DNA of 64,000 bases from an uncultured virus (IMG/VR IMGVR_UViG_3300029305_007310) (lineage: Duplodnaviria > Heunggongvirae > Uroviricota > Caudoviricetes): positions 1 through 64,000 of the IMG/VR virus record IMGVR_UViG_3300029305_007310; one strand, written 5' to 3'. How positions within the stretch are numbered: the stretch's first letter is position 1; each line of letters opens with the position of its first letter. Below, piece after piece: positions 1,751 to 57,262 of this stretch. The position numbers and the translations under genes were made by a program. Under the pieces are notes generated by a model. That model worked only from the letters and a program-made list of their open reading frames with translations, ran no database searches and was not told the origin of the DNA.

Positions 1751-1779
1751 TTTACAAAATAACTAATATGTGATATACT
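1751..1779 (+). promoter_or_regulatory. Sigma-A-like promoter for the recombinase
   Basis: TTTACA-N17-TATACT with TG extension. Confidence 0.6.
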
Positions 1780-1896
1780 AATACTACCGGATGGAGCAGC
1801 CAAGAGCATGCTCCTGATTATATTTCACTCATATCACTCGCATCTCACACCAGCCCATCACAAACTAATACCATCACACAGAAAGAGGGATATAGC

Positions 1897-26167: not shown

Positions 26168-26671
26168 GTGACGGATCGTTTAGCTGATGTCTACGAGGCG
26201 TTTTATGACAAAATCGAGTTGGACTCAGAATATTTTCAGTATTTTGATGTAGATGAGATCGAGGCAATGAAAATTGCCCAAGAGCGTGCGCGGTCGTATC
26301 TCCGAGAAGCGTGCAGTTATTTAAGACGTCATGTAACTTTAGATTTCAGTCTTAGAATTGAAAAAGATGAGACGGGTGAAGAACATTTTGCTGCATCTAT
26401 AACTGATGACGAGGTGGATCTCTTGGCGGCAATTATGCTTGTGCCTTACTATGAAAGAGGTCTAGCAAAATTGCGGCCAAAGCTTAACACTTTTTCAGCT
26501 AGTGAGTTGAAATTGCTGCATTCACCGGCCAATGAACGCCAGACATATTTAGCTCTAATTGAGAATCAAAGGGCTAATATTAACTTTTTAATTGCTGACT
26601 ATTACGCCAAAGATCGTTTGACAGGCGCAGAAAAAATGATCAGTACAACTATACCGGAGGATTCAGAGTAG
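26168..26671 (+). CDS. Putative head-tail adaptor
   Basis: Position and size. Confidence 0.55.
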   Translation: MTDRLADVYEAFYDKIELDSEYFQYFDVDEIEAMKIAQERARSYLREACSYLRRHVTLDFSLRIEKDETGEEHFAASITDDEVDLLAAIMLVPYYERGLAKLRPKLNTFSASELKLLHSPANERQTYLALIENQRANINFLIADYYAKDRLTGAEKMISTTIPEDSE

Positions 26672-32634: not shown

Positions 32635-35600
32635 ATGAACATGCCAGATGAATTAAGTGTAAAAATAGATGTTCTATTAGGCGTAAAGGAAGGCGAAGTA
32701 AAAAATATCAAGGCTCAGCTGGAAGACGAAAAAATAAATGTCCCAGTTAATCTTGACGTGAAAGGGACAGATAAGGTAGATAAAAAACTTTCTCAGCTTC
32801 AGCAGCGTGCGCAAAAATATGCTGGTGAAATTCGAAAGATTATAGCCAGTGTGCCTGAAATAGATAAGACTTTTAGAGGTTATACATTTTCTTCAGGAAA
32901 ACTTAGGGATGCAAAATCTGAAATTCGTGGGCGCTTAGCTTTAGCAGAAAAAGAACTGACACCATATCTAAGACAATTAGAATCGCCCGATTTAACAGTT
33001 GATCAGCTTAAAGAAGCGCAAAAAGCCTCAAAGAAGGTTTTGGCAGATATATACCGCGCTCAAATGATGAGCGAAATGGCATCAGTCGGCAAAATGTTGA
33101 CTCAAGGGGATAAGGCAGTTTCAAATGCTATTCTTCCTGATGAAGAAAGAAAGAAGCTTAAGAAAAATCTTTCCTTGTTGCGCAAAGACTACAATAAATT
33201 TTTTGATACCATCGATGAGAAGGCAAAGAAAATTGCGGTTGGCAAAGAGGATTTTTATGCTTTAAGAACAAGTGAGTTTGCTTCCATTGGCAAAATGGAG
33301 CGTGTACTTGAAAAAATTCCGCAGGAAATCGCTATTGCTGCAAATATTACCCCTGCTGTTGATCAAAAGGCAATTCAAACAGAAATTAATTCCGCGGTTG
33401 AAAACATAAAAATAACTAAGCCAGTTAAAGTGCCTATCGAGTTGATTGTTAAAGAGGATGTTAGCAGTGCCGATGATTCATCGGCGATTTCTAGTGTTGT
33501 TTCTTATAATGAAAAGAATTTTGGGAGCGCACTTAAGGCTGATGAGAAACTTCGTAATTTGTATGGAAAATTCCAGGATGATTATGAAGATCTTGTGCAA
33601 CAGTTCCTCATGGGCGAGGAAGATGAAGAATATCGGCAAAAAGCTCAAAGTCTAATACAGGATGTAATTAACAATCGCAAAATGGAGCCTGGTAAGCTTC
33701 TGCAGGCGATTAGGGATAAATATAATAAAGACGGCAGCGAGTTTAATATTGGCAAGCGTGAAATTGGAAAAATACTTACTTTTGCTAATCATTTAGAGAA
33801 TAAATTCGCCCCGGCTCTTGAAAAAACAATTGCGAAAATTGAAACCGACCTATCTTCCAGAGTGCAGAAGTCAGCAATTGCTTTACAGCACACTATAGAT
33901 CCTGAGAATCTCCTAAAAGCCTCAAAAACAAATGGCCTTATTGCCCCTAGTGGTGCCGTTTTTAATACGTCTCACGTGCCACAATTATATGGAAATGTTG
34001 GCCTATTTTTTGATGGCGCGACATTTGATCCTAGACTTCATCAAGATTCGCATTTGTTTGGAGCTGACGGCAATACACCGGTTGTAGGAAATTTAAAAAC
34101 CAGAAAAATCAGGAAACAAGACGGGACTATTGAAACTCAATTATATAGTGAGTTAGAAAAAGCATGGTTGCCTTTTACTGCTGAAAATGCAGCGAATATC
34201 ATGCGCAATGAATACCCGCTGGTCAATCTGCCCGGTCATTTCGGGAAAAGTTTTGACGCTCCAGAAGATTTTGAAGAAGTCGGCGAGTCTCTGAAACAAG
34301 CATTTATAAAAAGGTATGCCAACTTTGATGAGCTGTTGGCAGATTCAGATCGTTTATTGGATGCTGTAAAAACCAATGGCGGTATAAAAGATGCTGGAAA
34401 TATTGATGCGGATCAGCATAAGGCATACGCACAAAAATATAGAGAAATTCAAACTGATATTTTGAATGCTATGGGGAAAGATGCCATTGATAGCGTTGAC
34501 CCACAAATTTTTAAGGCTGTTACAGATGCTATTGTTAGTGACACATCCCCGATGCTGGCAAATGAGAATGAATTTGTATCCTCTTTGCAAAAAAGCTTTG
34601 ATGAAACGGGTATTCAACTAAATAACGAGATAATTCAGAAGTTGGTAAGCCTTAGAAACAGCATGGCGAACAATTTGGCCGATTATTTTGAAGCAAAAAT
34701 TATGCGCGATGTCGGCATTGAAGAAGCTCGCGCAGCTGTTGTGCCGCGGAATGTTGATCCTGCGGTTCGCCAAGAACTTACAAAAAGAAATATCCCTATT
34801 TATGAATATGAATATACCGAACTCCCTAAAGCAAAAGATTTTCAGGGAGATCAAAAAGCTTATAAAGAAGCCTTTGTTAGAATTAATGAGGCGAATGAAA
34901 GAGCTTATCTTGAAGCTGTTAACAGGGTAATTGCCGATCATCCTGAGCTTAATTTAAGAAATTACAAGACAAAGTTGCCGCCAATTGCTGCGGATAGTAG
35001 CAAGAAAGAAGCTGAATTCCGTAAACAGGCAAATGACTTGATGGCTCGTTTTACACGTGCATCTTCTGAAGAGATTGTTCCTAAAGTAGACCCTTCTGAG
35101 ATTGAGAATGCTGGCGCTGAGGCGAAACAACTCTCAAATACTTTGGCAAATCTCGAGGGTGAAAGCACACATGTGCATGTTAATGCTGATGAGGTTAAAA
35201 CAGCAACTAAAGAAGCGGAAAGGTTGCTTGCGCTTCCCGCGCCGCAATATGAGGAGCTATCTCCTTATCAAAAGCCTAGCGCAGAAGCGCTTCGCAATGT
35301 TGATGCTATTTATGATTGGACAACTTACGAGCGAGCGCTTGAACCGATTTGGAATAAAATGCGCGATGGGTTATCTCATCCTCAGTTTATCCCAATTGGC
35401 GGAAGGACCCTTCAGGATTTAGTTGATAATTATCGTACTGGGCTACAGGGTGCCAATTTGTTGCCCGATGCGAGCGGCAGTATTGGCAGGTTTCCTGGGG
35501 TGGGTACTTCATCTGCTTCTATACCTGTTGATATAAATGTGGATCCTGATATTCACGTAAATAATCCCGTAGAAGTAAAAGAAGAAGTCAAGAAGGTCGT

Positions 35601-37671
35601 AGAAAATGCAACCAAATCTAGTGGCTCCACAAAAGCAGAAGCAGATGTTGAAATAGAAACAAATGTTGAGATTGCCGATCCGCATGGCATGATGAATGAC
35701 ATCAAAGCAGAAATTGAAAAGAATAAAAAACTGGTTGATGACATTAGCGAAATGCCTAGGTCGATAATGAGCAAACAACAGGCAGATAATCGTGTCAGTC
35801 AGTTGCAGCAAAATATAAAGCATCTTGAACATTTGCAAAATGTGCTGCAGCAAACGGGAAACATGCTGCCCGATAATTATGAGTCTATTTTTGCTCAGAG
35901 CAGGAAGCTTCAAGAGAAAGCTTTTAAAAATATCCATTTAGAAACCTTTGAGCAGCAGGGCGATAAGCTTAAAAATATGTTCTCTGAAATTACTCAGGCA
36001 ATGGGCTCGTTACACGGCGATAAAGATTTCTCTAATCTGTTTGATGCCGCCTCTAATTCTTTGCAGGTTTACAGCGACCAGTATGCTAAAGTCCTTGAGC
36101 TTTCCAAGCAAGGCAACTTAACCGGTGAAGATATTGCTTCTTTAAATAAGGCATATGTTCAGGCTGCACACGATGTTGAGGCTTATGCGAAAGCGGTCAA
36201 AGACGCCTCGAAAGCTGAAGAAAAGCAAACCAACGCTGCTAAGAAAAATCAAGCGGCAATGGAGACTGCAAAAACAAAAATCCAAGAAATGCTTGAACTT
36301 CAGAAAAAATATGAAAAAGCATTCAAGGATCCTGCTTGGGCGCAGTCTTATAATAACATTTTAGCTGGCTATCAGGCCATTGGCCCCGATACAGAAAACG
36401 CCGCGGATAGGGTCGCAAGTCTTAACAAGCAACTTGCGGCATTAAAAGCCCAAGCTCGTGCGGCTGGCACCGCAACAACTACTTTTGGGACTTCACTTGA
36501 GAAAGCCTTTAGCCGTTTTGGCCGGTGGTTTAGCGCATCTGAGATTTTCATGTTTATTGTCAATAAAACGAAAGAAATGATTGGCAATGTAAAAGCTATC
36601 GATTCTGCAATGACAGATCTCCGTAAGGTTACTGATGCGAGTGAAGGACAGTACGACAAATACTTAACTAGCGCAGCACAGCGTAGTGCTGATATGAGTG
36701 CAAGAATTACCGGCTATATTGGTGGGACAAATCAATTTGCGCGTCTTGGTTATGGTATTGAGGATGCACAAAAACTTGGTGAAGTCGCAACGATTTATGC
36801 CCAAGTTGGCGACGATATTCAAGGAATTGAGGATGCCTCTAGTAGTATTATTGCTACAATGAAGGCGTTTGATATTGAAGCAGACAACGCTATGTCCATT
36901 GTTGACAAATTTAACAGAGCTGGTAATGCTTACGCAGTTTCCAGCGGCAACATTGGCGCAATGCTTCAACGCTCTGCGGCCGCTATGGCATCTGCAGGAA
37001 ACGATATTAATCAGACAATTGCCATGGGCACTGCTATGGCAGAAGTCAACCGCGACGCTGAAAAATCTGGCGCCGCGTTAAAAGTGCTTGCTCTTCGTCT
37101 AAGAGGTTCTAAAACTGAGCTTGAAGAGATGGGTGAGAGCACGGAAACCATGGCCACTTCAACTAGCAAACTTCGTGAGCAGATCCTAGCTCTTACGAAC
37201 GTTGATGGTACTGGTGGCTTTGATATTATGGATGCAGATGGTTTTAAGTCCACTTATGAAATGATCGATGGTATTGCCAACGCATTTAATAAGATGGATG
37301 ATGGTAGCGAAAATGCCGCGGCTTTGTTGGAGCTTATTGCTGGTAAGAACCGTGCTTCTGATGTTGCCGGTATGATGAAAAACTGGGAAACGGCTAAAAA
37401 TGTGTATAAAGATATGCTTAATGCCGAAGGCAGCGCAATGGAAGAGTACGAAAAGTGGCAGAAATCCATTGAAGCTAAGTCTGAAAAGCTCGGTTCCAAC
37501 TTTGAGCGTATGTCAGTTGCTGTTTTTGACACAGAAGTTCTCAGTGCATTCTATAATATTCTAAATAGCATTCTCTCTGTTTTCAGTGGAATTGCTGAAG
37601 TTGCGGGTGGCATTCCGACTATTGTTGGACTTGCTTTTGCTGCTTTGGCAAAAATTAAACCTGATTCTGGT
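32635..37671 (+). CDS. Tail tape measure protein, exon 1
   Basis: TMP core (IDSAMTDLRKVT, FARLGY, VDKFN, LKVLALRLRG, LIAGKNRA); start may be ATG 32641; ends at the intron 5' splice site GGT. Confidence 0.88.
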
Positions 37672-38154
37672 ATTGTAAAAGTACAATATGCCCCGCTTAT
37701 GAAGAACTCATTGGCGGCGTAAACTCGTATATGCTGGGAAAAAGATGATGAGATAGATCAGCTACAACATGGCCCGAAAGGGCGAGTGTGAATGCAGGTG
37801 GGGAAACCCTTCACGGGAGTGGGAAAGAAAATGGTCTATTAAGTATATGGCGCGAGCCTACGTACAGGTGCTTCCATAATAAATAGCACACGTCTTTGGT
37901 CAGCAGGGGAATGATGAAAGTTGGAGCCTGATCAGCTCCGGCGATTGGATCAGCATTACCCTCACAGACTGCAAGGAGTTGGGGCGATAGAGATTCGCCT
38001 TTGATGGACAGTCGGACTGGTGGAGTGAAAATGGATAGCTCCACGCGTGAGTTTAAAGACTACACGCTGGCTAACGCTGGTGGCTGCGAAAGTGCCATAA
38101 GCTATTGAAAAAAAGAAATAATAGGAGTACAATGATTTAAAAGGAGGTGAGCTC

Positions 38155-38400
38155 ATGGCTTCTAAGCAACAGGAGGAAGACTTTCAGTGGTTTTTGAAAA
38201 ATTATGCTTCATTGTCAGAGAAATATGCCCCCGCATATTTGATTATCAAAAACGGCTCTGTACTTGGAGCTGAAGTGACTCCTGGTGACGCACTAAATAA
38301 AGCGCTTATTACAGAAGAAATGGGTAGTTTTATTATTCAAGAGTGTGATGGGACTGTTGAAGCATATACTAGTTATATTTCTTCTACATGTTTTTTATAA
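38155..38400 (+). CDS. Small protein, DUF5678-like (intron cargo)
   Basis: AGGAGGTGA RBS; FQWFLKNYASLSEKY..YLIIKNGSVLG pattern upstream of a protease. Confidence 0.6.
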   Translation: MASKQQEEDFQWFLKNYASLSEKYAPAYLIIKNGSVLGAEVTPGDALNKALITEEMGSFIIQECDGTVEAYTSYISSTCFL

Positions 38401-38432
38401 GATAAATTATACAAAAGACGGGATGAAACGCA

Positions 38433-38921
38433 ATGCTTTCTTCGCCAATTAGAGCATTTACTTCAACTTATCCTTCATTGAGCAAAAAGTTGATCAATGA
38501 AGCTGTGGTTGGTTACAATAAACAAGAGCTAACAGTGCGAGCTCAATGGGACACCGGTGCTACAACAACTTGTATTTCTAAAGATGTTGTTTCTCACTTA
38601 AATCTTATCCCTATTGGTTCTAGACAAATATCTACACCATCTGGGAGCTCGGTTGTAAATACTTATATACTTGATATTAAATTGCTCAACAATGTGACGA
38701 TTCCGCAATTAATCGTATGTGAAACGGAAATTGGGGATCAAGGCATTGGGCTACTTGTTGGCATGGATATTATTGGGTTAGGTGATTTTGCTGTTAGCAA
38801 TTGGGGCGGAAAAACAATTTTTACATTTAGAACCCCCTCTCAAAGAATAACCGATTATGCAAAACAACTATCCGTGCAAAATGTGATAGGCTCTCTTCAT
38901 GGAAAGAAACATAGAAAATAA
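38433..38921 (+). CDS. Retropepsin-like (clan AA) aspartic protease (intron cargo)
   Basis: AQWDTGATTTCI and LLVGMDII motifs. Confidence 0.85.
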   Translation: MLSSPIRAFTSTYPSLSKKLINEAVVGYNKQELTVRAQWDTGATTTCISKDVVSHLNLIPIGSRQISTPSGSSVVNTYILDIKLLNNVTIPQLIVCETEIGDQGIGLLVGMDIIGLGDFAVSNWGGKTIFTFRTPSQRITDYAKQLSVQNVIGSLHGKKHRK

Positions 38922-38945
38922 AAGAATATTTTGATTGTTTGTTGG

Positions 38946-39206
38946 CTATTCTCTCCCCAGAATTTCTATGATTTGTGGTCTAAAACCATCCACAAAACTT
39001 TGGGCGTCTTCACAGCAAAACACCAAAAACAACATTAAGGTCAATGCGCAACATCCATGTTCACCTTTTTCAATGGCAGCATAGGATCTGGGGTCAATCA
39101 ACAAGATCTCAGCAAATTGTGCTTGAGTCATTTGATTATCAAAACGCACTTTGGATAAACGTTCTATCAAATAAGTTTGAAGAGCGCATTTACACGCAGT
39201 TTTCAT
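38946..39206 (-). CDS. XRE-family HTH regulator (intron cargo)
   Basis: MTQAQFAEILLIDPRSYAAIEKG. Confidence 0.8.
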   Translation of the reverse strand: MKTACKCALQTYLIERLSKVRFDNQMTQAQFAEILLIDPRSYAAIEKGEHGCCALTLMLFLVFCCEDAQSFVDGFRPQIIEILGRE

Positions 39207-39429
39207 TGGCTATTATCTCCTTTTTAGTGATGTGGAAGATAATTTTAATGAAAAATGGTAGATGCTGCCATGAGGTATACATCATGAATTTTAAAGAAAA
39301 AAAGAAAAGACCGTTAATTTCGGTCTGTAGATTGACTATTGAATGAGGATATGATAGCATAAGTACGAAGTGAGGACTTCACTGTGCGTAAAGCACCCCA
39401 TAACAGCTAATTATCAAATCTAATTAGCT

Positions 39430-39477
39430 AATCAAAAGTATCGTGCAAGCTGTCAACTGCACGGTACTTTTTGATTT
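39430..39477. terminator. Bidirectional terminator-like hairpin inside the intron
   Basis: AATCAAAAGTATCGTGCA...TGCACGGTACTTTTTGATT. Confidence 0.65.
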
Positions 39478-39568
39478 AGCCTGCGAAATGAGCGTACATT
39501 TGGAAGACTAAACGTAGAAAGTTGATGATAGTGATAATAATATCACAGATAGAATTAGTCTTTCTCAT
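39476..39568 (-). CDS. 30-aa hydrophobic peptide, type I toxin-like
   Basis: MRKTNSICDIIITIINFLRLVFQMYAHFAG after GAAAGGGGGTG RBS; flanked by long complementary arms. Confidence 0.6.
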   Translation of the reverse strand: MRKTNSICDIIITIINFLRLVFQMYAHFAG

Positions 39569-39711
39569 CACAACACCCCCTTTCAGTATTACCTGTTAGG
39601 GATGTTGCCGCACAGTGCTTCGTGCTTATGCCATTATTTACTATACTACTGAGGGAATTATAGTGCAGAAGAACGGGTGTTCTTACTATTTATGTTTGTG
39701 TTTTGCAGCGC

Positions 39712-40206
39712 CTATTTCTTTATTGATAGTTGATGCTCAAACAGCTCATGGAACATAAGCTGCAATTGAATGTCTTCAAATTTGATTAGAAAGACATCGT
39801 TTGTTACATCAACAATTTTACCAGCACCAAGCTTTTTATGAAGGATAGTAGCCCCAATAAAATTATTGTAAATAGAATTGGTGCGCACAGAAGCAGGGGT
39901 TCGCGTTTTCTTGGATTTGGTTGCTATGCGATTTTTCTTTTTCTCCTCTTGTTGGTGTAACCATGCCTCATTGGCCTTTCTGATTTTTTCCTGATCATAT
40001 TCGATTTTGCGTCGCATGATCATAAGATTTCTTTGATCTTCTGTGTAGTATTTGCAATATGTAGAGGAAGAACAGGGCCCGTATTTGAAGAGGCAGTTTT
40101 TAGTTTCTTTATTATAGTAGGCGCAGCGTAATTTTGATCTATTCTTATCGATCTTTTTTACGTATTCTATGTGCCAAGGAGTCCCCTGAAGTTGAGAAAT
40201 GCTCAT
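39712..40206 (-). CDS. Hypothetical basic protein (intron cargo)
   Basis: Cys cluster, coiled coil and C-terminal HKKLGAGKIV (Tudor/SH3-like). Confidence 0.7.
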   Translation of the reverse strand: MSISQLQGTPWHIEYVKKIDKNRSKLRCAYYNKETKNCLFKYGPCSSSTYCKYYTEDQRNLMIMRRKIEYDQEKIRKANEAWLHQQEEKKKNRIATKSKKTRTPASVRTNSIYNNFIGATILHKKLGAGKIVDVTNDVFLIKFEDIQLQLMFHELFEHQLSIKK

Positions 40207-40215
40207 AAGTATACC

Positions 40216-40668
40216 TCACCACATATGCCCACATTTCTTGCATCTTTTGGTTTTGCCAATCTTATTGCTTGCAAGCCCCCAGGCAGCTACAGAGAATGCA
40301 CGACGGATTGTGGAGATTTCTTCGATGATCTGAGGTGGAGCTCCGCATTGGGGACAACATTTTGCTCGGAAAGCAGCTTGACGAGCGAGTGTTTCTCTAT
40401 GAGAACGGGCATATTTTTGGGCCTCATCCATAATTTGCGTTACTTCTTTTTCACGCGCAGTAACAGACATCATTGATAATTCAGTCAGCGTATGGACTTC
40501 CCATCCCCAATGCTTTGGTGTAACGACATCAACTTTCCCGCCGCAATTTTTGTGTGTGGCTCTCATATTATCAAAAAGTTGCAGAGCGCTTTCTTCAATG
40601 TCAAGTGCTGGAGCCACAGCTCCGCACGTTTCACAATACCAAAAATAATCATCATCCCATTTTGACAT
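40216..40668 (-). CDS. Zn-ribbon protein (intron cargo)
   Basis: AAGGAGGT RBS; CETCG, CPQCG and KTKRCKKCGHMW. Confidence 0.75.
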   Translation of the reverse strand: MSKWDDDYFWYCETCGAVAPALDIEESALQLFDNMRATHKNCGGKVDVVTPKHWGWEVHTLTELSMMSVTAREKEVTQIMDEAQKYARSHRETLARQAAFRAKCCPQCGAPPQIIEEISTIRRAFSVAAWGLASNKIGKTKRCKKCGHMW

Positions 40669-40693
40669 TTTTAAATACCTCCTTATATTTATT

Positions 40694-40722
40694 AGTATAC
40701 CTATGCCTATTTATAGTGTCAA
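40694..40722 (-). promoter_or_regulatory. Consensus sigma-A promoter for the antisense cargo genes
   Basis: TTGACA-N17-TATACT on the minus strand. Confidence 0.75.
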
Positions 40723-40754
40723 CATTGATCATGTAGACATTTAGCCACAAGTTG

Positions 40755-43700
40755 ATTTTACCTTGGCAACAAATAATTGGTGCAGATGGTAATGCGTTTT
40801 TAGGTTCCATTTTTACTGCAAATAGAGACAGAAAAGCTGTTGCTTTGGAAGTACAAAAAAGAGATTTCGCATTTCTTGAGGAATATAATTCTGCCTCAAA
40901 ATCACGTCGTGATGAAATCGAAAAATTAATTTCTCCTCAGACTGCGGGTTTTGTTAATTTTGATCTTTTGAAAGACAAAGCTGACGACGCAGATGAGCAC
41001 ATCAAAAGCGTTAAGAAAACATTAGAAGGAATCAACAAGATTGAATTCCAAGGCTGGGGCAAGAAAGCGGTTAACGCTCTCAAATCAGTCGGCCAAGCCT
41101 TTGTTGGTATTGCGGCTCAGGCTCTTACTGCTATGGCTGTTACTCTGGCTATTGAAGGCATTGTCACAGTTTTCGATAACATCATCAATGCTTCTCAGAA
41201 GGCCATTGACGCCGCAGACGAGACTAAAGCTGCGTGGGAGTCCTTAGACGCAACCCAGAAAACCGCCAGAGAGACAATTGACCAATATGGCGAACGTTAT
41301 GATGAATTGTCTGAGAAAAGGGGTAAACCTTCTGGGTTGAGCACTTCCGAGTACGAAGAATATAAAGATATTTGCAACGAACTTGCTTCCGTATTTCCAG
41401 AGTTGGTAAGTGGCTGGGATGAGCAGGGAAATGCCATTCTTAGGGCTAATACAAGTATTAAAAAGCTGGAAGAGTCGTATCAGTCTTTACTTCGTTTAAA
41501 TCGTGAAGCAAAGAGTGAAGATTTTGCGGAAACAGTCATGGAAGGCGCTTATGCAAGATTGTATTCTGCTGATAAAGGTAGTTATACGGATTACCTCGAA
41601 ATGCGTCGTGCAGCCGAAGAGTTGGCTAGGATGCAAGGCAGAGGTGAAAACGCAGAGGCCTATGAATTTGTTGCTCCCGGTGTAATTGGCGATTATGGCC
41701 AATACTGGTTTGGTAAAGATGGAATACTAAGCAGCAGTAACAAATTTATTGAACAAATCAATGGATTTATTAGCAGTGGCGACTTGAGCGCCATTGGGAA
41801 AATCCCAGGAGACCTTGCTGCATATTTTGGAACAGTAACCGCTGCCGCTGGAGCTGCTGAATATGCCGCTGATGAGATCATTAAATTAAGTGACATTGAT
41901 GCACTTGATTATATTACCGATCATACCGGAGCGCTAAAGCAAGGCACATCATTAGACGATGGTTTAAATCAGTTAGCTAATGCTGTGATTGGACAGATCA
42001 TGTCTATAGAGCTTATAGTTGCTCAAAAAGCAGAGTCTTTGAGCTATCAGGCGGATCGTGATCTTGTCACTTTACAGGATGAATACCGTAATATGACTAT
42101 TAACGCGTTTGATCGGTATTCAAACTATAAATATGGTGGCGGCATACTGGCCGAATCTGGATTTGAAGAAGATTTTAAAAATTATCTTGAAAGAGTGCCG
42201 TATGCTTTTGGACATGACTGGTTTGGTGAAATAGACGCCAAAGATCCGGCAGCTTTTGCTGATAAGTACAAAAATGAAGTACTGAACAAATTAAGAATTC
42301 CTACTGTTTCTGAAATGGTTGAGGGAATGTACCAATCTGTTACGGATTATTTCTCTGGAGATATGTCATATGGCGATCTTAAGAGAAAGTTGGATGGATA
42401 CGGTAAAGATGGGCCATTCCAAAACGACCGTGTTTGGTCTGCATTTATTGAAGCCGCGTTTGGTGGTGAAGGTGTTCAGCAAGCGCAAGAAGATGCTTTT
42501 AAGCGAGCAAAAAACATCTTAAAATTTGGAGATGCTTCCTCGCTTGAGGATTTGACATTTGAACAATTGTCATTTCTTGCAGGATATAAAGGGGAAAGTA
42601 TTTATTCACTTGACGAATTGAATGCTCTTATGAAAGAGGATGCAATAAAAAATCAAAGTGAATTAGAAGAAATTATTAAGTCCTACACCGACTTTAACGA
42701 GGCTCGCACCAAATCACTGTCCGCTCTTTCAGCCCTTAGCGAGCAAGGCCACCTTACTCCTGACGAATGGAAACAGCTTCAGGCGTCTGGCTATGATGCT
42801 GCAATTGCTGAAACACAGTATGGCTCCAAGTATGTCGATTATCAGACGATGCGTGATATCGACGAAGCTAAAACTCAGGAAAAGATTGTAGAAAATCTTG
42901 AGGCGAAAGCTTTAAAGCAGGAAAAGCTTAATGAGCTAACTGATGAGCACACCAAGCTCCTTGCTGAAAATTCCAAGGAAGCCGAGAAAAAGGCAGAAGA
43001 AATCAAAACTCTTGAAAATGAGATTGATTTGATTGATCTTATGAATGAGAGTCTTTTGGAGTCTACTTCTGCTCTTAATGCGTTTAAGCAGGCCTCCAGT
43101 ATGGCCGAGCTTGGTGACAACTTCCGCTCTACCAAAGAAGCTCTTGATGCTATTAATGAGGGTCTTGAGTCTGGCCGTGTGGGCACCAACAAATTCAAAG
43201 CTGCGCTTGAACTGCTTGGTGGCAGAGGGATGCTTGAACGGTTTGAATCCGGCGATTTCTCTCGTAAAGAGCTGAAGCAATACACTGAGCAACTTGGCAA
43301 ATATTATGACGAAGATGGCAACATCAATCGTAGTAAGGCATTTGATACTTTTGTAAAAGAAGGTATAGGGCGCTATTTCAAAGGTGAAAACGGAGAAAAG
43401 CGTTTTGCATTTAATGCTGGGACTACGATGGCTCAGATCCAAGAAAAGCTTGGCGGCATTACGGAAGAGATGGCTACATACTTCCTTGATGCTATTAATG
43501 AGTATGCTGTTGGTGCAAATGAAATCCTTGGGCCTGATGGTTATGAGAGTTATCAGGAAAGAGCGAAAAAAGCCAGAGAAGAAGCTGAGGCAAAAGAGAG
43601 TGCAAGAATTGAACAGCTTAATGGAATTGCAGAAAATGCTTTAACGGCCTCTACTGAACAAATTGCGGCAGCTACTGAAACAAAGGCAGCGGCTACACTT

Positions 43701-46700
43701 ATGAAAGAAGCTGCGGCTGCATGGCTGGCGTCTGCGCCCAAGGAAACTGAACCGTCTGCTACACCTATTGATTCTCAAATTGAATTAGAAAAAACAGCGA
43801 TAGATAATCTCTTTAAAGAGCATATTGGAGCAACGCCTGTTCCAACTGAAGATACAGTTCAAGTGAATGGGGACATGTATGTGCAACCGCACGATTCAAG
43901 TGCCCCAATAGCGAAGCCATTCTTTAAAGACCCATTAGTGGGATTGGAAGGTACAGACAACTATCAGATTGAAGCACAGGCCATTGAGGCTGCTAGTGAT
44001 ATTTTAAAGGCGGCACTTCCTCAGCATTCTGATTTAGGCAGAGAGCCTGTTTCTCTCTCGGACGAAGTTTATAGCGAGAATAGAGCTGATGCTAATGCCC
44101 AAATTGATGCCAATGTATCTTATATCAAAGGCTTGTTCCAGGCTTTTGAAAGTGCAGGCGTGGATATGGCTCAAATTGATTTGGGGGCTTTGCAATCAAA
44201 TGTCCAGAGTGTTGTAGATACACTTAAAGTGCTTGGGTACAGTGGCGAAGCGCTTGACCAAGCAGACGCAATACTGCAAGGAATCAATACCAAATTGTTG
44301 GCATTGAAAGCGGCCGAAGCGGACTTGCCTTCTACGCCTCCTGTTCCGTCTGAAGTATCCTCAGTGATACCCAATAGAATTCCTGAAAAACTGCCAGAGA
44401 ACGCTAGTGTATTTGAAAGCCTTGTGGGCGGTTTGACGGCTGTTACTCAGGAGACGAAGCAAGCATTAATCGATCATGCTATTCATCTAAAGGAAGCTTA
44501 CGTTACCTTAGAAGATTACGAGAATTCTCAAATGGTAGAAAACGCCATTCAGAAAATCATGGATCTTCAAGTTGAGGGAATTACTCCTTATGTGCGTCCC
44601 GAACCTTCAGAGGTGCCGGAGGATGCAAAAGCGAGGATACCTGATAGCATCCCTGATATGCTCCCTGAAAGCGCGAGTGCATTTGAAAGTCTCGTGAGAG
44701 GGCTTACTGTCGTTACTGCGGAAGTGCAAGCAAGGCTTCTTGATCATGCTAACAGCTTGAAGGAAGCCTACACCAACATGCTCTCGATAACAGGAGATTA
44801 TGAGGGTTTGGCTTTAATTGAGAATGCTCTCAGCCAAATCGAGAGTCTTGAAATTGTAACTGATGCTCCTGTAGAAGTGGCTCCTGGTGCAGAAAATGCA
44901 GTTCCGTCTGCAACAATGAGCATTCATGAACAATTAATGGCGCTGGGTGCTATGGGGCATGGTGCATTAGCATTTGCTGGATATAACGATGTAAACGCGA
45001 TTAGAACTGAAAGAACAAAATCTTCAGAGACCACCCCTGCCGGGGAAGAGCAAGAGATTGAAAGTGAATTACATCTTGACAATGAAGCTGCTCTTGATGC
45101 GATTGATGAAGTAAAGGAGATAGCGGAAGAACCCTTAGAGGGTACTTTTGAGGTTGATCCTACATCTGCTGAGACTGCGGTAACGAATGTAGTTACAATG
45201 ATTGAAACGATAACAACCAAGCCCGTTGATGCAAACACAGAGCCTGCAGAGGGCAAGGTTGGAACGTTGGATTCTCGCATTCGCGCAACTGTTACCAAAG
45301 GTGTTGATACCAGTCAAATTGAAGGCGCTATCTCTTTAGCCGATGCGCTTCACAGCTCTCTTTCAAGGCCTGCTACAAAACGTGTTACAGTAGTTCAAAG
45401 TGGCGGATTAACGTCAGGTGGTTCAGTAACCGCTGTTGATGGCGGTAAAATGGCCTCTTCTGGTGGGATCGCACGAGTTGATGGAGGGGCGGCATATGCT
45501 GGTGGTACAGCCCTTGTTGGCGAAATTGCTCCTGAAATTATTGTTGACCGTAAGAGTGGTACATGGAGACTTGTTGATTATCCACAGCTTACCCATTTGA
45601 ATCCTGGGGATATTGTTTTCAATGGTGAGCAAACTAAGGATATACTTGCTGGTAAGCGCACTGGTTTTAGTAAAGCTTTTGTAGATGGCAATGTTAAGGG
45701 TGGTTTGAGTTTTGCGAGTGGAGAAAAGCGGTACTTAACAGCCGCTATGGGAGAATTTCAGGCTGGGAGTTTCGGCCTTAGCACTCCTTATAAAAGCCAA
45801 GCCATACCGGATGGTAAGAAAAAAAGCTCCGGCGGTGGTGGATCTTCTCGTGGAGGCTCCGGCGACGATGAAGAAAAAGACTGGAAAGACTGGATTGTCC
45901 GAGTTCTTGAAATTGCAAAAGAAGCTACAGAGAAAGCTATTGACGATGTGGCTAAGAAAATTGGCTACCTCGCACAGAATGCTCAGTTGGATGTAGCTCT
46001 TAAAGCAAATCAGAACGAGATTGAAAAGAATGAGGCTGCTCAAAAGCGCTATATGGAACAGGCTGCGCAAATGCAAAGAGAGCATGGTTTAAGCGCTGAC
46101 ATTGTAAAAAGGATTCAAGAAGGCACGATTGATATTACTAAGTATGATCAAGAAATGCTTGACAAGATTGATGATTATCAAACATGGTTTGAGAAAGCGG
46201 AAGATTGTCGAAAAGCTGTGGAAGAGCTGAAGGAGCAAGAGCTTGAGCTTCAGCGCCAAAAACTTGATAATATCGACAAATATTACAACCACAAGATTGA
46301 CCGTCTTGAAGCCCAAATCAGTAAAAATGACTCCATGCTTGATCGGAAGGGCGCTTACGGCGAAGAGATTTTTCAACAAGATTATGTTGATGCCATTAAA
46401 GCAACCCAAGACAAGATTGCTCAACTGCAGGCTGAACGGAAGGCTTATGCAAAGCAGTTTGATGTACTTGTGAAGTCTGGGGCTCTTCAGCCTGATAGCA
46501 ATGAGTGGCATGAGTACATATCTACTCTTGAAGAAGTGGATGAATCCATTATAGAAACGCAAACAGACCTCGCAGAGTTAAAAGATGCCATGGAGAACAT
46601 AAAGCTTACTAATTTGCAGTATGCTCTTGATCGTCTTGAAGCTTTGCAGGATGCTTTAGAGAGTTTCTTGGATTTCCATGATTCTCAAGGCGTTGATAAT

Positions 46701-47054
46701 AATGCTGATACCTATATTGATCTGATTCAGAATGCTTTCGACGAGATTGATAACCTTGAAATGCAAAATGAATTCCTCCGTGGGCAGCAAGAAGGACTGG
46801 ATGTCCTGAGCGAGAAATGGCAGGAATTGCAGCAAGAGATTGAAAGCAATGAACAGAGCATTTGGGAGATTAAGTCTGCGCAGGAGGATTGGAATGATAC
46901 AATCGCTGACTTGCAGATTCAGATGCTTGAACGTGAACGTGAAGAGCTTGAAAAGACCAATGACGCGCTGGAAAGACGCAAAGAAATGGAAGATGCTCTT
47001 GAAGACCTTGAAAAGGCTAAGAGCCAGAGAACGAAACTCATATACAGAGAGGGT
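40755..47054 (+). CDS. Tail tape measure protein, exon 2
   Basis: 2100-codon helical frame with no RBS upstream; ALVGEIAPEIIV motif; ends YREG at a 5' splice site. Confidence 0.85.
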
Positions 47055-48289
47055 AAACACCGATGCCCCTTTACGCAGTAATGTGTATTGCAACAGGTGA
47101 GTATATCGGTTAAAGCCTGAAGGAGACAGGTAAGACCGAGGTAAATATTGTTTATTGGCAAAATAGTAAGGAGTTATTTTGCCGCCATATAATCGGGTAC
47201 CAGAGAAAGAAACAATAAAACTATGTAATAGTATAAACTTGGAATATATTAATACGATTTATGAAAAGGTCGCGTATGTTGAATTTATATGTAAAAAGCA
47301 TGACTACAAAGGGGTGCAAAGAATAAACCGCGAAGCTCTTTGTAGATGGGCTCAGAAAGGCACCTGTAATTGCGCACATATTAACAGAGACGCAGAAGAT
47401 TTGCGTCGTGAACCAAATTTGGATAAAGATGTTATTGTATTGGGTGAATATATAAAATCCAATATCCCCATTTTGTGCAAATGTAAAAGATGTCAAAGTG
47501 AATTCATGGCGACACCAAATAAACTTCAGCAAGGTCGCGGGTGCCCCAATTGTCGTTTTGAAAAAATAGGTGAACATAATCGCCTTGGTTTAGAAACCTA
47601 TAAGCAACGCTTACAAAAGAATTTCCCTGACTTAGAATTAGTCGGTGAGTATTCAGGGATGGAACATTCAATAACGTTTCGCTGTAAACGGTGCGGTAAA
47701 GTTCAGAAATGCTCTTCTGCATGGAGGGTGCTGTCTGGTGATCGCGGGTGTTCTAAATGCAATTCATCTAAAGGTGAAAGAAAAATTGCTAATTATTTGG
47801 ATGCGCACAATATTTTTTATGAAGCACAAAAGCAATTTTTACAGTGTCACGCTAAGAAGCCTTTGCGATTTGATTTTTATATTCCCAGTTTGAATACCTG
47901 CATTGAATACCAAGGAGAACAACACTATAGACCAGTTGATTTTGCTGGTAGGCATGATGGGAGCCATATAGTTAATCATTCATCTTTGCTGGAAAGAGAT
48001 GATATTAAACGCTCTTTTTGCTCGCAAAATGCAATTAATTTGGTCGAAATTCCATATTGGGAAATAGGAAACATCGAAGAAAAACTAAAAGATTTATTAT
48101 GCTAATAAACAATATAACCGTAGAGACTGTAATGGTGGTTACAGCAATGTGACCACCTGACTCACCCTCCTCGAAAGAGGATGAAGATCCAGTCCGAACT
48201 CGCGCTATATCTCCAAAATAATAAAACGCGAGAGATGGGTTGAAAGACCTATCCGCCACACAAGTGGTTTATAAGTAACAGATTTATTG
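47055..48289 (+). ncRNA. Group I intron in the tape measure gene
   Basis: P1 GGGT/GCCC; P10 CCGAT/ATCGG; P3 GGTGAG/CTCACC; P7 GACTG/CAGTC; GAAGATCCAGTCC; terminal G; join YREG|IGFVYEAD in frame. Confidence 0.92.
47179..48105 (+). CDS. Intron-encoded homing endonuclease: Zn-binding repeats plus C-terminal Vsr/PD-(D/E)xK-like nuclease
   Basis: Repeated CxxC...GCPNC units; SKGE, LRFDFY and IEYQGEQH; lies in the P6 loop. Confidence 0.85.
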   Translation: MPPYNRVPEKETIKLCNSINLEYINTIYEKVAYVEFICKKHDYKGVQRINREALCRWAQKGTCNCAHINRDAEDLRREPNLDKDVIVLGEYIKSNIPILCKCKRCQSEFMATPNKLQQGRGCPNCRFEKIGEHNRLGLETYKQRLQKNFPDLELVGEYSGMEHSITFRCKRCGKVQKCSSAWRVLSGDRGCSKCNSSKGERKIANYLDAHNIFYEAQKQFLQCHAKKPLRFDFYIPSLNTCIEYQGEQHYRPVDFAGRHDGSHIVNHSSLLERDDIKRSFCSQNAINLVEIPYWEIGNIEEKLKDLLC

Positions 48290-55460: not shown

Positions 55461-57116
55461 ATGGCTACTACTACTTTTAATAATATTCGTCTTCAGCTCA
55501 AGTATGATTCTTATGCCAATTGGCTTAACAGCTCTCTAATCCTGAATCCTGGTGAAATTGGTATTTGCACTATTCCTGCTGAGACTAATGCTATTCGTCA
55601 GGAGCCTGCTGTTATTATCAAGGTTGGTGACGGTGAGCATCTGTATAAGGATCTGCCGGTTTTGAGTGCAAAATCAGGAGATGTGGCATCCTGGGCCCTG
55701 GCCGAGAACAAGCCTGCTTACGAAGCTAAGGAAATCACTGGTATTGACGCCTACATCGCTGGTTATGTTAATGAGCAGATGGGCATCTCTGTTGACACTG
55801 ACACCCAGTACCAGATTGTGACCGTTGACGCTTACACCTGCAAGCTTCAGTCCAAGGGTAAGACCGATGAAGCTTGGGCCGATGTGTCTACTATCACCAT
55901 GCCCAATGACACTGCTGCTATCGACGCTCTGAAGGCCCTTGTTGGTACCGAGAATGTTGCTAAGCAGATTGGTGATGCTATCACTGCCCTGGATCTGGCC
56001 AACACTTATGCCGCAAAGTCTCATACCCATGAGATGGGCGAGGTGAACGGTCTGACCGAGGCTCTGGCTGGCAAGCAGGCTGCTGGCGATTATGCCACCA
56101 AGGCCGAGGCTCAGGGCTATGCCGATGCCAAGGACGAAGCTATTGCTGCCGCTAAGAAGGCTGGCGACGATGCTCAGGGTGCCGTTGACGCTCTGGCTGG
56201 AAAGGTTGGCGAAGTGCCTGCCGACAAGACTGTTGTGCAGATGATCAACGAGGCCCAGACCGCTGCTACTTATGACGACACTCAGGTGAAGGCTGACATC
56301 AAGGCCAACGCTGATGCCATTGACGCCATTGAGGAAGACTACCTGAAGAATACCGATAAGGAAGAGCTGCAGGGCGCTATCAACACCGAAAAGGGTCGTG
56401 TTGACACCCTGGTTGGCAACGACGCTAACAAATCCGTGCGTACTATTGCAGCCGAAGAGCTGGCTGCTCAGTTGATCGCTGAAAACGCTCAGGAAGCGCT
56501 GGACACTTTGGGCGAGATTGCCGCTTGGATTCAGGCGCATCCCGGCGATGCCGCCGCCATGAACAGGGCCATCGATGACCTTGAAGCTCTGGTTGGCACT
56601 CTGCCTGAAGGCGCTACCGCCACTACCGTTGTGGACTATGTGAATGAAATGATTGCTGGCCTGAAGATTGGTGATTATGCCAAGGCTGCTGATCTGACTG
56701 CCGCAGTTGGCCGCATTGCTGCTCTGGAAGCCAATGTCGATAAGTGGAATGCCGCTGAACAGAATGCCAAGGACTATGCTGATGGTCTGAATACCACCAT
56801 GGATGGTCGTGTGCAGGCTGTTGAGGGCAAGGCCCACGAGCACGCCAACAAAGAACTGCTTGATACTTACACTCAGACTGAAACCAACCTTGCTGACGCT
56901 GTTGCTAAGAAGCATGAACACGAGAATGCTGGCGTTCTGAATGGCATTACTGCCGAGAAGGTAGCCGCTTGGGATGCCGCTGAACAGAATGCCAAAGATT
57001 ACACTGATGAGCTGGAAGGCGAGCTTTCTGCCGTTGCGAAGAGCGGCAATGTTAATGATCTGATTCAGACCACTGGTGACGTCCTTATCCTTGACTGCGG
57101 AAACTCTGAGGCATAA
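55461..57116 (+). CDS. Long coiled-coil tail fibre protein
   Basis: LNPGE..KVGDG N-domain; LDTLGEIAAWI; AAEQNAKDY repeats; highly expressed codon style. Confidence 0.75.
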   Translation: MATTTFNNIRLQLKYDSYANWLNSSLILNPGEIGICTIPAETNAIRQEPAVIIKVGDGEHLYKDLPVLSAKSGDVASWALAENKPAYEAKEITGIDAYIAGYVNEQMGISVDTDTQYQIVTVDAYTCKLQSKGKTDEAWADVSTITMPNDTAAIDALKALVGTENVAKQIGDAITALDLANTYAAKSHTHEMGEVNGLTEALAGKQAAGDYATKAEAQGYADAKDEAIAAAKKAGDDAQGAVDALAGKVGEVPADKTVVQMINEAQTAATYDDTQVKADIKANADAIDAIEEDYLKNTDKEELQGAINTEKGRVDTLVGNDANKSVRTIAAEELAAQLIAENAQEALDTLGEIAAWIQAHPGDAAAMNRAIDDLEALVGTLPEGATATTVVDYVNEMIAGLKIGDYAKAADLTAAVGRIAALEANVDKWNAAEQNAKDYADGLNTTMDGRVQAVEGKAHEHANKELLDTYTQTETNLADAVAKKHEHENAGVLNGITAEKVAAWDAAEQNAKDYTDELEGELSAVAKSGNVNDLIQTTGDVLILDCGNSEA

Positions 57117-57145
57117 ACAAACTAATTAAACAGACGATTACACAC

Positions 57146-57180
57146 GGGGTGATGGGTTAATTCCATCACCCCTTTAACTT
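57146..57180 (+). terminator. Terminator-like hairpin
   Basis: GGGGTGATGG...CCATCACCCC TTT. Confidence 0.55.
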
Positions 57181-57262
57181 TGCAAATAACGGGGCGGTTG
57201 AAATGGATACCGCCTCGCCCTCTTACGATTTGAAAATGAAAATTGGATTGGAGGAAATATAG

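Follow-up and report, generated by a model that had tools for sequence, protein, structure and literature searches.

A candidate group I intron that carries accessory genes within a temperate gut phage's tape measure gene

We analysed a 64,000-nt stretch (the window) of an uncultured tailed-phage genome (IMG/VR record IMGVR_UViG_3300029305_007310), in which the tape measure protein (TMP) gene is split by an island of other genes (Table 1). The upstream TMP ORF (32635-37722, 1695 aa) is closed by TAA at 37720-22; the downstream frame (ORF2) is open from 40737 and runs to 47081, with TTG at 40752 as its first start-like codon. Read from the sequence, no Shine-Dalgarno-like element precedes 40752. 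These coordinates agree with an earlier note on this DNA, which had the TMP frame ending at 37722 and resuming near 40752 without a ribosome-binding site. Pfam PhageMin_Tail matches the upstream ORF at aa 1353-1567. The TMP profile phrog_4211 aligns at positions 305-946 with aa 1010-1674 of the same ORF and at positions 986-1666 with aa 103-988 of ORF2. Both halves are thus collinear on one TMP profile and represent one gene in two pieces. In one relative (L006), an unbroken TMP of 3395 aa spans phrog_4211 positions 587-1643, and because uninterrupted TMPs in relatives reach about 4000 aa, a full-length TMP is the norm. Joining 37671 to 40755 keeps the frame and yields ...PDSG/ILPWQQ, the junction that the earlier note had proposed, although around this point the TMP varies too much for the precise joint to be confirmed by homology. 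We set the intron boundaries by the U-G pair of the 5′ splice site, by P9.0 with the terminal G and by the in-frame junction; relatives share this architecture.

Table 1 Features of the split TMP gene and the proposed intron. Positions are those of the window.
Feature	Position	Strand	Remarks
TMP exon 1	32635-37671	+	1679 codons, the last a GGT glycine codon
Proposed group I intron	37672-40754	+	3083 nt; terminal G40754
P1 and 5′ splice site	37669-37692	+	exon GGT with GCC; inner hairpin 37674-37685
P2 hairpin	37693-37717	+	9/9 pairs in minimum-energy fold
P3 5′ strand and P4-P5-P6 domain	37722-37962	+	P3 5′ strand 37722-26
P4	37732-37 with 37900-05	+	standard pairs; in minimum-energy fold
P5	37741-47 with 37891-97	+	extension 37748-37890; in minimum-energy fold
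P6	37906-13 with 37954-62	+	in minimum-energy fold
P6b	37923-27 with 37935-39	+	in minimum-energy fold
P7	37965, 37967-71 with 38009-14	+	bulged A37966; encloses P3 3′ strand and P8
P3 3′ strand	37976-80	+	inside P7
P8	37983-87 with 37995-99	+	inside P7; in minimum-energy fold
J7/9 with P9.0 strand	38015-18	+	opens segment 38015-38067
P9	38020-26 with 38038-44	+	in minimum-energy fold
P9.1	38045-49 with 38063-67	+	in minimum-energy fold
Long-range helix, 5′ strand	38068-38074	+	TGGCTAA; exact complement of 40741-47
Promoter-like site	38105-38133	+	TTGAAA-17-TACAAT (10/12); between core and first cargo gene; consensus scan only
81-aa cargo gene	38155-38400	+	strong ribosome-binding site; no family match
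162-aa retropepsin-like aspartyl protease gene	38433-38921	+	Pfam Asp_protease_2, E 8.1e-7
86-aa helix-turn-helix (XRE-like) gene	38946-39206	-	Pfam HTH_19, E 3.4e-6, below curated cut-off
Terminator-like hairpin	39308-39326	-	pattern scan only
Terminator-like hairpin	39442-39463		T run on both strands; pattern scan only
164-aa cargo gene	39712-40206	-	Cys-rich N-terminus; no family match
150-aa double zinc-ribbon gene	40216-40668	-	antisense; conserved
Promoter-like site	40662-40689	+	11/12; 65-90 nt upstream of 3′ splice site; consensus scan, AT-rich
Promoter-like site	40722-40694	-	11/12; upstream of zinc-ribbon gene; consensus scan, AT-rich
Intron 3′ tail	40741-40754	+	helix 3′ strand 40741-47, P9.0 strand 40750-53, terminal G40754
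TMP exon 2	40755-47081	+	2108 codons plus stop; no start codon or ribosome-binding site at junction

Exon 1 runs directly into a fold with the organization of a group I ribozyme. The helices were assigned by hand, guided by the alignment of the Rfam group I model (RF00028) to a relative, L077 (see below), and every proposed pair in P1, P2, P3, P4, P5, P6, P6b, P7, P8, P9 and P9.1 is a standard pair. P1 has only three exon pairs (U37671-G37690, G37670-C37691 and G37669-C37692), among them the last exon U paired to the guide G. The same GGT/A... context with an ...ATGCC or ...TTGCC guide recurs in relatives L005, L063, L077 and L128, and the P1 of L005 has six exon pairs. The P3-P8 and P4-P6 domains stand in canonical order with a P3/P7 pseudoknot. 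P7, the helix that binds guanosine in group I introns, has a bulged base here, and the insert ends in a G right after P9.0. An unconstrained minimum-energy fold recovered P2, P4, P5, P6, P6b, P8, P9 and P9.1 but not P1, P3 and P7, as expected for a P3/P7 pseudoknot; its z-score was -2.88, and none of 100 shuffles folded equally well. The full P1-P9 core claimed in the earlier note is therefore borne out helix by helix (37669-38067), but RF00028 gives it no score. This model, whose gathering threshold is 50 bits, found no match in the window at the gathering score, none at E<=10 whether 3.6 kb or a 471-nt slice was searched, and none in a whole 125,944-b record, so that the search with a group I model suggested as a check came back empty four times.

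Variation among close and distant relatives bears on whether these helices are real. Strain contigs from metagenomes vary at 24 positions of the core. Of these, 14 are in named helices, each with a standard pair retained; eight of the 14 form four compensatory double changes, and none breaks a helix. The double changes lie in P6b (37924 G>A together with 37938 C>T), P8 (37985 C>T with 37997 G>A) and P9 (38021 T>C with 38043 A>G; 38023 G>A with 38041 C>T). A change in P2 (37697 T>C) turns a G-U into a G-C pair, and pairing in P7 survives as wobble after 37968 A>G and after 38009 C>T. The compensatory changes between strains demonstrate continuing selection on the core helices. For more distant comparison, we built a model (R1) from the window's P7-P8-P9 domain. 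In a search of 734,688 b it matched L077, whose element occupies the same TMP site, at 8495-8583 (29 bits, E 3e-4) and also L101. At the same place in L077, RF00028 aligned over its full length with 38 bits (E 7.6e-8; 2.0e-9 in a second search), below 50 bits. When the window, L077 and L101 were aligned, all 54 of 54 cells were paired and 11 of 18 pairs had changed on both sides, which none of 500 shuffles reached; these counts come from three sequences only, in an alignment fitted to the model. P9 had changed on both sides in 7/7 pairs, and P7 was invariant across the three. A search with a second model (R2) yielded no additional clade, and MAFFT/RNAalifold alignments across clades were unsuccessful. 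Thus, compensatory variation, both between strains and against the Rfam-recognized relative L077, upholds the assignment to group I.

We then considered the distal 3′ end. The P9.0 pairing that had been proposed is present: 38015-18 pairs with 40750-53 through three Watson-Crick pairs and one G-U pair, directly before G40754. The strands of the proposed long-range helix, TGGCTAA (38068-74) and TTAGCCA (40741-47), are indeed exact complements, but their pairing does not exceed chance: shuffled sequences have a longest helix of 9.7 bp on average, and the observed maximum is attained in 405 of 500, since the stretches are AT-rich and helices of such lengths are expected. The window's clade is without a divergent relative. 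An analogous loop-closing helix of L077 and L101 is 29 bp long, was reached in 0/500 shuffles and includes one compensatory change. As for P10, four of six positions of the window (37685-89 with the exon 2 start) pair, and 6/6 matches exist elsewhere in the insert. A P10 with 6/6 Watson-Crick pairs lies at the predicted in-frame distal exon 2 start in L005 and, with a differing sequence, in L063 and L066.

The loop between these ribozyme parts carries genes on both strands. The earlier note had counted six ORFs without nuclease or transposase motifs. Both strands are coding and no such family is present, but five ORFs are credible (81 and 162 aa on the plus strand; 86, 164 and 150 aa on the minus strand) and other domains are recognizable, namely Asp_protease_2, HTH_19 and zinc ribbons. 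The sixth, 39044-39346 (+), shares DNA with the oppositely oriented 86-aa gene, has no family match and was not counted as credible. The 162-aa protease has 74 homologues at E<=1e-5 and is 28% identical (E 4e-18) to the protease that is the first cargo gene of L070; the 81-aa protein shows weak similarity (E 0.004) to the ORF upstream of that protease. The 86-aa protein matches the phrog_3 repressor at E 0.0066. The 150-aa protein aligns with antisense 3′-end ORFs of seven relatives; invariant columns include cysteines C12, C15, C105, C108, C143 and C146, and its atlas neighbours are nameless proteins of Bacillota and phages. Cargo starts at about 38100 and differs between strains, and the two promoter-like sites within 40662-40722 stand back to back. 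Searches of the window's ORFs with Pfam, PHROGs and PADLOC recognized no homing endonuclease (LAGLIDADG, GIY-YIG, HNH, His-Cys box, PD-(D/E)XK or related). TnpA and TnpB were likewise not found in the insert; the relatives' antisense 3′-end ORFs have zinc-ribbon matches in Pfam, including weak ones to the transposase-type families PF12760 and PF07282 (E 1e-4 to 3e-3). The cargo is thus, as had been suggested, without a recognizable homing endonuclease or insertion-sequence (IS) gene.

A comparison of related phages for a conserved core and variable cargo, also proposed in the earlier note, found both at the same TMP position. The gene is interrupted at this site in 25 of 80 related loci (26 including L126), in nine sequence clusters. 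In every interrupted locus a ribozyme stands at the 5′ end and the conserved antisense double zinc-ribbon gene stands at the 3′ end, with 1-5.8 kb of variable cargo between them that includes a retropepsin-like protease module, MazF/SocA, HEPN and DUF3990. Of 26 loci in the L063 clade, 25 contain an insertion, with identical boundaries but 18 different lengths (2602-5834 nt); boundaries, guide and exon 2 start are invariant in 25/25, whereas exon 2 diverges to 63% identity. Neither the 25 L063-clade loci nor further searches supplied an intron-less allele that would fix the boundaries. The heads of exon 2 in L005, L077 and L101 show no start signal. All four records examined for it contain integrase family PF00589, and two have been classified as proviruses; the phages are temperate.

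We propose, with a probability of about 0.68, that 37672-40754 is a cargo-bearing, cis-spliced group I intron in the giant TMP gene of a temperate phage of the animal gut. The first ~400 nt would be the ribozyme, P1-P9.1; the DNA from ~38100 to 40740 would form a peripheral loop downstream of P9.1; and the last 14 nt would supply the loop-closing strand, the P9.0 strand and the terminal G. Late transcription would produce a pre-mRNA that reads through the island, and the ribozyme would join GGT (37671) to ATT (40755), giving a single TMP of 3787 aa. The loop would serve as a cargo bay, with the antisense zinc-ribbon gene fixed at its 3′ end and exchangeable modules beside it: in the window, the small protein with the retropepsin-like protease, the HTH protein and the 164-aa protein; in relatives, toxin-antitoxin or defence-type genes. 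With promoters and ribosome-binding sites of their own, the modules could be active at times when the late gene is not transcribed, as in a lysogen, and the essential gene would be left intact. From the sequence we infer splicing, its cis mode, the timing of cargo expression and the function of the cargo. The intron may act as a safe harbour for accessory genes within an essential gene, an idea strengthened by the relatives' toxin-antitoxin and defence-type cargo, the promoter-like sites in the intron and the temperate nature of the phages. Two features count against read-through in cis: the terminator-like hairpin at 39442-39463, with its T run on both strands, and the three antisense genes in the path.

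The same features would suit a split intron, in which this ribozyme joins two transcripts through complementary strands. The first would comprise exon 1, the core and the plus-strand cargo and end at the internal terminator; the second would start from the promoter-like site at 40662-40689, ahead of the 3′ splice site, and contribute the intron's 3′ tail and exon 2. Trans-spliced group I introns occur in organelles, read-through of the antisense genes would be avoided, and the 29-bp complementary strands flanking the loop in L077 and L101 are consistent with such an assembly. However, the promoters and terminators were called by consensus in AT-rich DNA, where promoter-like sites number 21 against 9.5 expected and terminator-like sites are not above shuffles, and the window's 7-bp closing helix is weak for bimolecular assembly. 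We consider trans-splicing unlikely. Equally unlikely, taken as a whole, is a broader reading: a group I lineage that has abandoned endonuclease-driven homing and is inherited in the TMP gene of temperate gut phages as a platform whose cargo is exchanged by recombination. The zinc-ribbon protein would be a factor of the platform itself, the internal terminator and the promoter ahead of the 3′ splice site would divide the intron into two trans-spliced transcripts, and the transcriptional state of the island would gate tail assembly.

Alternatively, the ribozyme may no longer splice, as a relic or one capable of 5′ cleavage only; the TMP would then be made as two polypeptides, or its first part only, and the island would be an ordinary moron hotspot. 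The failure of RF00028 to score the core, the weak P10 and closing helix of the window, the obstacles to read-through and the missing intron-less allele would all fit such a loss. It is hard to reconcile with an ORF2 that offers only a TTG and no ribosome-binding site, with the signal-less exon 2 heads of L005, L077 and L101, with compensatory strain changes that indicate continuing selection on the helices, with the invariance of the L063 clade's boundaries, guide and exon 2 start, or with the unbroken TMPs of relatives, and we judge it improbable. An island excised at the DNA level, or an assembly artefact, with incidental RNA structure, is very improbable: cargo is swapped between strains and the relatives' zinc-ribbon protein weakly resembles transposase-type zinc ribbons, but a second record (125,944 b) holds the identical sequence, contigs of several runs cover the region, none in four DNA runs joins 37671 to 40755, no recombinase or transposase domain lies inside, and the boundaries fall on ribozyme elements rather than repeats.

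The cis-spliced, cargo-bearing intron that we favour resembles known systems in part. Phage group I introns with a homing endonuclease gene include those of T4 td, nrdB and nrdD/sunY, of SPO1 DNA polymerase and of the LL-H and Moonbeam terminases; in T4 sunY the core comes first, at the 5′ end, and coding DNA occupies the space up to a distant 3′ splice site. The TMP intron shares with these a group I core of the self-splicing type in an essential phage gene and protein-coding DNA in a peripheral loop. Unlike them, the window's intron has five genes on both strands in place of one sense ORF, with promoter-like sites of their own, and no homing endonuclease family was found in it; among relatives the load ranges from 1 to 5.8 kb, and a conserved antisense zinc-ribbon gene occupies the 3′ end. 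Introns in phage structural and packaging genes have been described (PMC4299906, PMC3706429). IStrons (10.1101/2023.11.20.567912, PMC4430133), known from Clostridioides difficile, are group I introns fused to IS200/IS605 genes. Like these, the TMP intron has a bacterial group I ribozyme at its 5′ end and non-endonuclease passengers before the 3′ splice site, and its host probably belongs to the same phylum as the IStron host; unlike these, it yielded no match to TnpA or TnpB, its cargo is variable and non-IS, and it occupies one fixed site in one gene family instead of dispersed ones. The giant ND5-717 intron of hexacoral mitochondria, reportedly removed by back-splicing (PMC6545197), also holds several unrelated functional genes in the loop of an essential gene's group I intron. 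It is organellar, however, and its cargo is a fixed, same-strand core mitochondrial gene set, whereas the phage TMP cargo is accessory, bidirectional and strain-variable. Prophages also have hotspots for defence and accessory genes, as described for P2/P4 (10.1101/2021.01.21.427644). The TMP island is like these hotspots and morons in its fixed position in temperate phages and in the swapping of toxin-antitoxin and defence-type modules among close relatives; known hotspots lie between genes, whereas the TMP island is framed by ribozyme parts within an essential late gene.

Bacterial and phage group I introns are usually viewed as selfish elements with one endonuclease gene each. In the TMP intron family, swappable genes on both strands amount to as much as 5.8 kb, with no recognizable endonuclease among them, and sit in an essential late gene. 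Endonuclease-type ORFs (DUF4379, CapR and DUF723) do occur in relatives, in other interruptions of the TMP gene. If splicing occurs as proposed, a ribozyme would open the inside of an essential gene to use as a hotspot for accessory genes, a new type of site to screen for defence and counter-defence genes borne by phages. This would also explain why tape measure genes appear "split" when metagenomic phages are annotated, and would provide a natural model for adding payloads to phage genomes with genes unbroken. The family further exposes a gap in RF00028: among four same-site TMP introns searched with it, L077 alone was scored, and its score fell short of the threshold.

We identify the 3083-nt insert in the tape measure protein (TMP) gene of the window (37672-40754) as a group I intron on the grounds of structure and homology, although it scores below the Rfam threshold, and we predict that it splices. 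The gene is divided into two frames. The first ORF (32635-37722) encodes 1695 amino acids and is terminated by TAA; the next long plus-strand frame is open from 40737 for 2109 codons, with TTG at 40752 as its sole start-like codon and no Shine-Dalgarno-like sequence seen before it, just as the earlier note had described a TMP frame that breaks and reopens without a ribosome-binding site. Against the PHROG profile phrog_4211 (2625 positions), exon 1 covers positions 305-946 and ORF2 covers 986-1666, and the relative L006 spans positions 587-1643 with a single unbroken frame of 3395 amino acids. Further relatives have unbroken TMP frames of about 4000 amino acids. Judged from these comparisons, the two window frames are halves of one TMP. 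Joining 37671 to 40755 keeps the frame and yields PDSG/ILPWQQ, the junction that had been proposed; the TMPs were too variable around it for a homology test of the exact joint. The source viral record comprises 74,255 bases, and a second record of 125,944 bases is 100% identical over the same region. No RNA run was listed among those containing the sequence, and DNA contigs of four runs included none that bridged exon 1 to exon 2 across the insert. In GenBank phages, blastn found no match to the window region or to two sequences from related TMP loci in IMG/VR, the L077 element and the L063 core; PMBT24 and CB473P1, two cultured phages of Enterocloster, have unbroken TMPs. The N-terminal part of this giant TMP also carries a PBECR5 domain, a Barnase/EndoU/ColicinE5-D/RelE-like nuclease (exon 1 residues 410-520, about 33862-34194, plus strand; Pfam E 2.1e-9, above cut-off).

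The ribozyme core was laid out by hand (see table). As claimed, the core is complete; it runs from P1 to P9.1 and consists of standard pairs throughout. Unconstrained folding recovers P2, P4, P5, P6, P6b, P8, P9 and P9.1 and misses P1, P3 and P7, the last two being pseudoknotted; the z-score of the core fold is -2.88. A search with the Infernal group I model, which the earlier note had suggested, was negative: RF00028, the Rfam group I intron model, gave no match in the window at any setting and none in the whole record. Three independent lines, namely a recognised relative, a model built from the window and strain variants, make the core more than a structure drawn by hand. Comparison with contigs of related strains from animal-gut DNA runs revealed 24 variant positions in the core, 14 of which lie in named helices, and a standard pair is kept on its own contig in all 14 cases. 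Eight of these helix variants form four double changes, 37924+37938 (P6b), 37985+37997 (P8), and 38021+38043 and 38023+38041 (both P9).

Features of the ribozyme core and promoter-like sites in the window
Feature	Position	Strand	Remark
P1	37669-92		U37671-G37690 at splice site
P2	37693-717
P3	37722-26 with 37976-80
P4	37732-37 with 37900-05
P5	37741-47 with 37891-97
P5 extension	37748-37890		143 nt, GNRA-type loops
P6	37906-13 with 37954-62
P6b	37923-27 with 37935-39
P7	37965, 37967-71 with 38009-14		bulged A37966
P8	37983-87 with 37995-99
P9	38020-26 with 38038-44
P9.1	38045-49 with 38063-67
Promoter-like site	38105-38133	+	before 81-aa gene; consensus scan only
Promoter-like site	40722-40694	-	before zinc-ribbon gene; consensus scan only
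Promoter-like site	40662-40689	+	consensus scan only

The recognised relative is L077, in which a 1-kb element breaks the TMP at the same position as in the window. RF00028 aligned end-to-end with L077 8215-8577 at 38 bits (E 7.6e-8), below its gathering score of 50 bits, in a match first obtained from a small slice only; six relative loci searched with Rfam at E<=1 gave no group I match. R1, a covariance model made from the P7-P8-P9 domain of the window alone, matched the corresponding part of L077 at 29 bits (E 3e-4 in 734,688 bases searched) and a second relative, L101, at 25.3 bits. When these three sequences were aligned by fitting to the model, 54 of 54 cells were paired, P7 was invariant, and both sides had changed in 4 of 5 P8 pairs and 7 of 7 P9 pairs, which none of 500 shuffles matched. 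A search with the further model R2 added no clade beyond the window, L077 and L101, and MAFFT with RNAalifold, which misaligned the clades and in one run yielded no consensus pairs, was discarded as a test. A pattern scan of IMG/VR DNA for P7 motifs was dropped: apart from the three already known, its 48 loci shared no sequence with the cores, and their number was about that estimated for chance. The record containing L063 has a second RF00028 match (26361-26589, plus strand; 34.1 bits, E 1.8e-8) that lies some 23 kb away from the TMP intron, which itself gave no RF00028 score.

The same position is interrupted in many relatives. With the aligned C-terminal part of exon 1 as query against IMG/VR, we obtained the best 80 of 190 TMP relatives, many of them near-duplicates. 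In 25 of these 80 loci (26 with L126), the TMP frame ends at one shared alignment position, to within 162 nt; 52 of the 80 are uninterrupted here, 39 continuing for 3.2-7 kb and 13 reaching the locus end, and in L117 and L119 (plus L126 and L130/L131) an interruption lies further upstream. BLAST grouped the cores into nine clusters. All members examined share a common plan, in which the exon end GGT is paired with GCC of the guide, the intron strand that pairs with the exon ends, a structured 5' part of 400-700 nt contains group I P4, P7 and P7' motifs, and an antisense gene occupies the 3' end, its start 40-90 nt from exon 2. Minimal elements (L077, L082, L101 and the second of L126) are about 1 kb long and have no other content. 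TMP genes are also interrupted off this site (L011 6249-6611 and 6811-8838; L009 1339-2552; L126 7675-9546; L117 8032-9875; L130 7666-7983), by inserts either of about 320-360 nt without an ORF or of 1.2-2 kb with a single sense ORF bearing DUF4379, CapR, DUF723 or DUF2726-type domains. These off-site inserts look like conventional endonuclease-bearing introns, and none scored with Rfam at E<=1.

The strongest evidence that the intron would span the whole insert comes from the relatives. The L005 guide has, 5' of its GCC, six bases that are fully Watson-Crick complementary to the first six of exon 2, at a predicted in-frame site 2.0 kb downstream. L063 and L066 likewise have six such bases, of another sequence, whose exon 2 partners lie at distances of 2.6 and 4.7 kb. 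Across the L063 clade, the guide and its exon 2 partner bases are invariant in 25 of 25 loci, while exon 2 identity falls to 63%. In L077 and L101 the antisense gene is surrounded by a 29-bp helix, which none of 500 shuffles equalled and in which one pair is U-A in one element and C-G in the other; both elements end 10 nt past the helix, at the G after the P9.0 complement. The window has corresponding features in weaker form. Its P9.0 has four pairs followed directly by G40754, as the earlier note had it, and four of six P10 positions are paired. The proposed helix of 38068-74 with 40741-47 does exist, but its 7 bp are a length easily reached in shuffled sequence. For the window, L063, L066 and L005, neither the longest-helix test nor the duplex test gave a significant closing helix; the tests on L082 and L126 used guessed intervals. 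Among the in-frame G candidates 40751, 40754 and 40766, we read 40754 as the best P10 fit.

Within clades, the first 415-515 nt of the elements are 95-100% identical and diverge thereafter, so that relatives combine conserved same-site cores with differing loads, which supports the cargo-intron interpretation put forward earlier. From exon 1 end to exon 2 start, 25 of 26 L063-clade loci measure 2602-5834 nt in 18 lengths, and the boundaries are equal in all 25 except for one base at the first intron position of L185; the L132 clade behaves likewise. One strain related to the window has 145 different bases in place of 38099-39162, and the sequence of a second departs from the window past 38100; the cargo thus begins directly after P9.1. 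No intron-less allele was found in the L063 clade or in searches with the window region. L070 and L073 carry a small ORF and a retropepsin-like protease directly after the core, in the order seen in the window, and the proteases of L070 and the window share 28% identity (E 4e-18). With 74 homologues at E<=1e-5, the window protease is, by sequence, a member of a real family. Other loads include SocA/Panacea with PemK/MazF (L128), HEPN pEK499_p136 (L134, L136) and DUF3990, of PARP-like fold (L005). The majority of cargo ORFs lack a family match, and no similarity was found between the 164-aa window gene and the 223-aa L063-clade gene. These results support the view that the elements form a previously unannotated intron family with a predicted role as an exchangeable cargo bay. 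Across loci L168-L193 of the L063 clade, identity is 91-100% in the tail of exon 1 and drops to as low as 63% in the first 200 residues of exon 2; divergence or exchange within the TMP therefore has a sharp limit at the intron.

The antisense gene at the 3' end encodes a double zinc-ribbon protein that can be aligned over eight elements, including the 150-aa ORF of the window; the zinc-ribbon cysteines C12, C15, C105, C108, C143 and C146 are among its invariant columns, and there are Pfam matches too. A word search gave only four close homologues, and its Atlas neighbours are unnamed. The L101 protein (1516-2073, minus strand) has a Ribosomal_L12 C-terminal domain in its middle (Pfam E 6.7e-17), so the middle part of this family is swapped among elements.

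IMG/VR lists the 125,944-base record as a provirus, and a tyrosine integrase gene is present in it (PF00589, 61.4 bits; window about 2077-2601, plus strand, by locus offset from 56739-57263 of record G001). From their sequence the phages are temperate, and the TMP gene would therefore be silent in the lysogen. Consensus scans alone placed promoter-like sites (see table) and terminator-like hairpins between the convergent units of the island. Cargo is probably expressed independently of the TMP, and late read-through transcripts would be mended by splicing to give full-length TMP in the virion. The internal terminator and the plus-strand promoter-like site at 40662-40689 would also permit splicing in trans. 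That the insert is a relic that does not splice is unlikely, given the compensatory strain variation in the core and an exon 2 without any start signal. We rejected a group II intron, an intein and translational bypass, since the insert is 3 kb long, contains an in-frame stop codon and lacks a reverse transcriptase and a GTGYG start.

Phage structural and packaging genes are already known to host introns (PMC4299906, PMC3706429). IStrons, the gene-bearing ND5-717 intron of corals (PMC6545197) and prophage defence hotspots each have one aspect in common with the window intron. Searches of an open-access full-text library turned up no group I intron of a phage whose cargo is multi-gene, bidirectional and variable, and none with a conserved antisense zinc-ribbon gene, in line with the earlier note, which knew of no description of a cargo-intron system. 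Elsewhere in the window, 15514-15667 (plus strand) holds a drum RNA (RF02958, 88.5 bits) directly followed by a DUF3800-XI RNA (RF02975, 62.5 bits), each exceeding its own gathering score.
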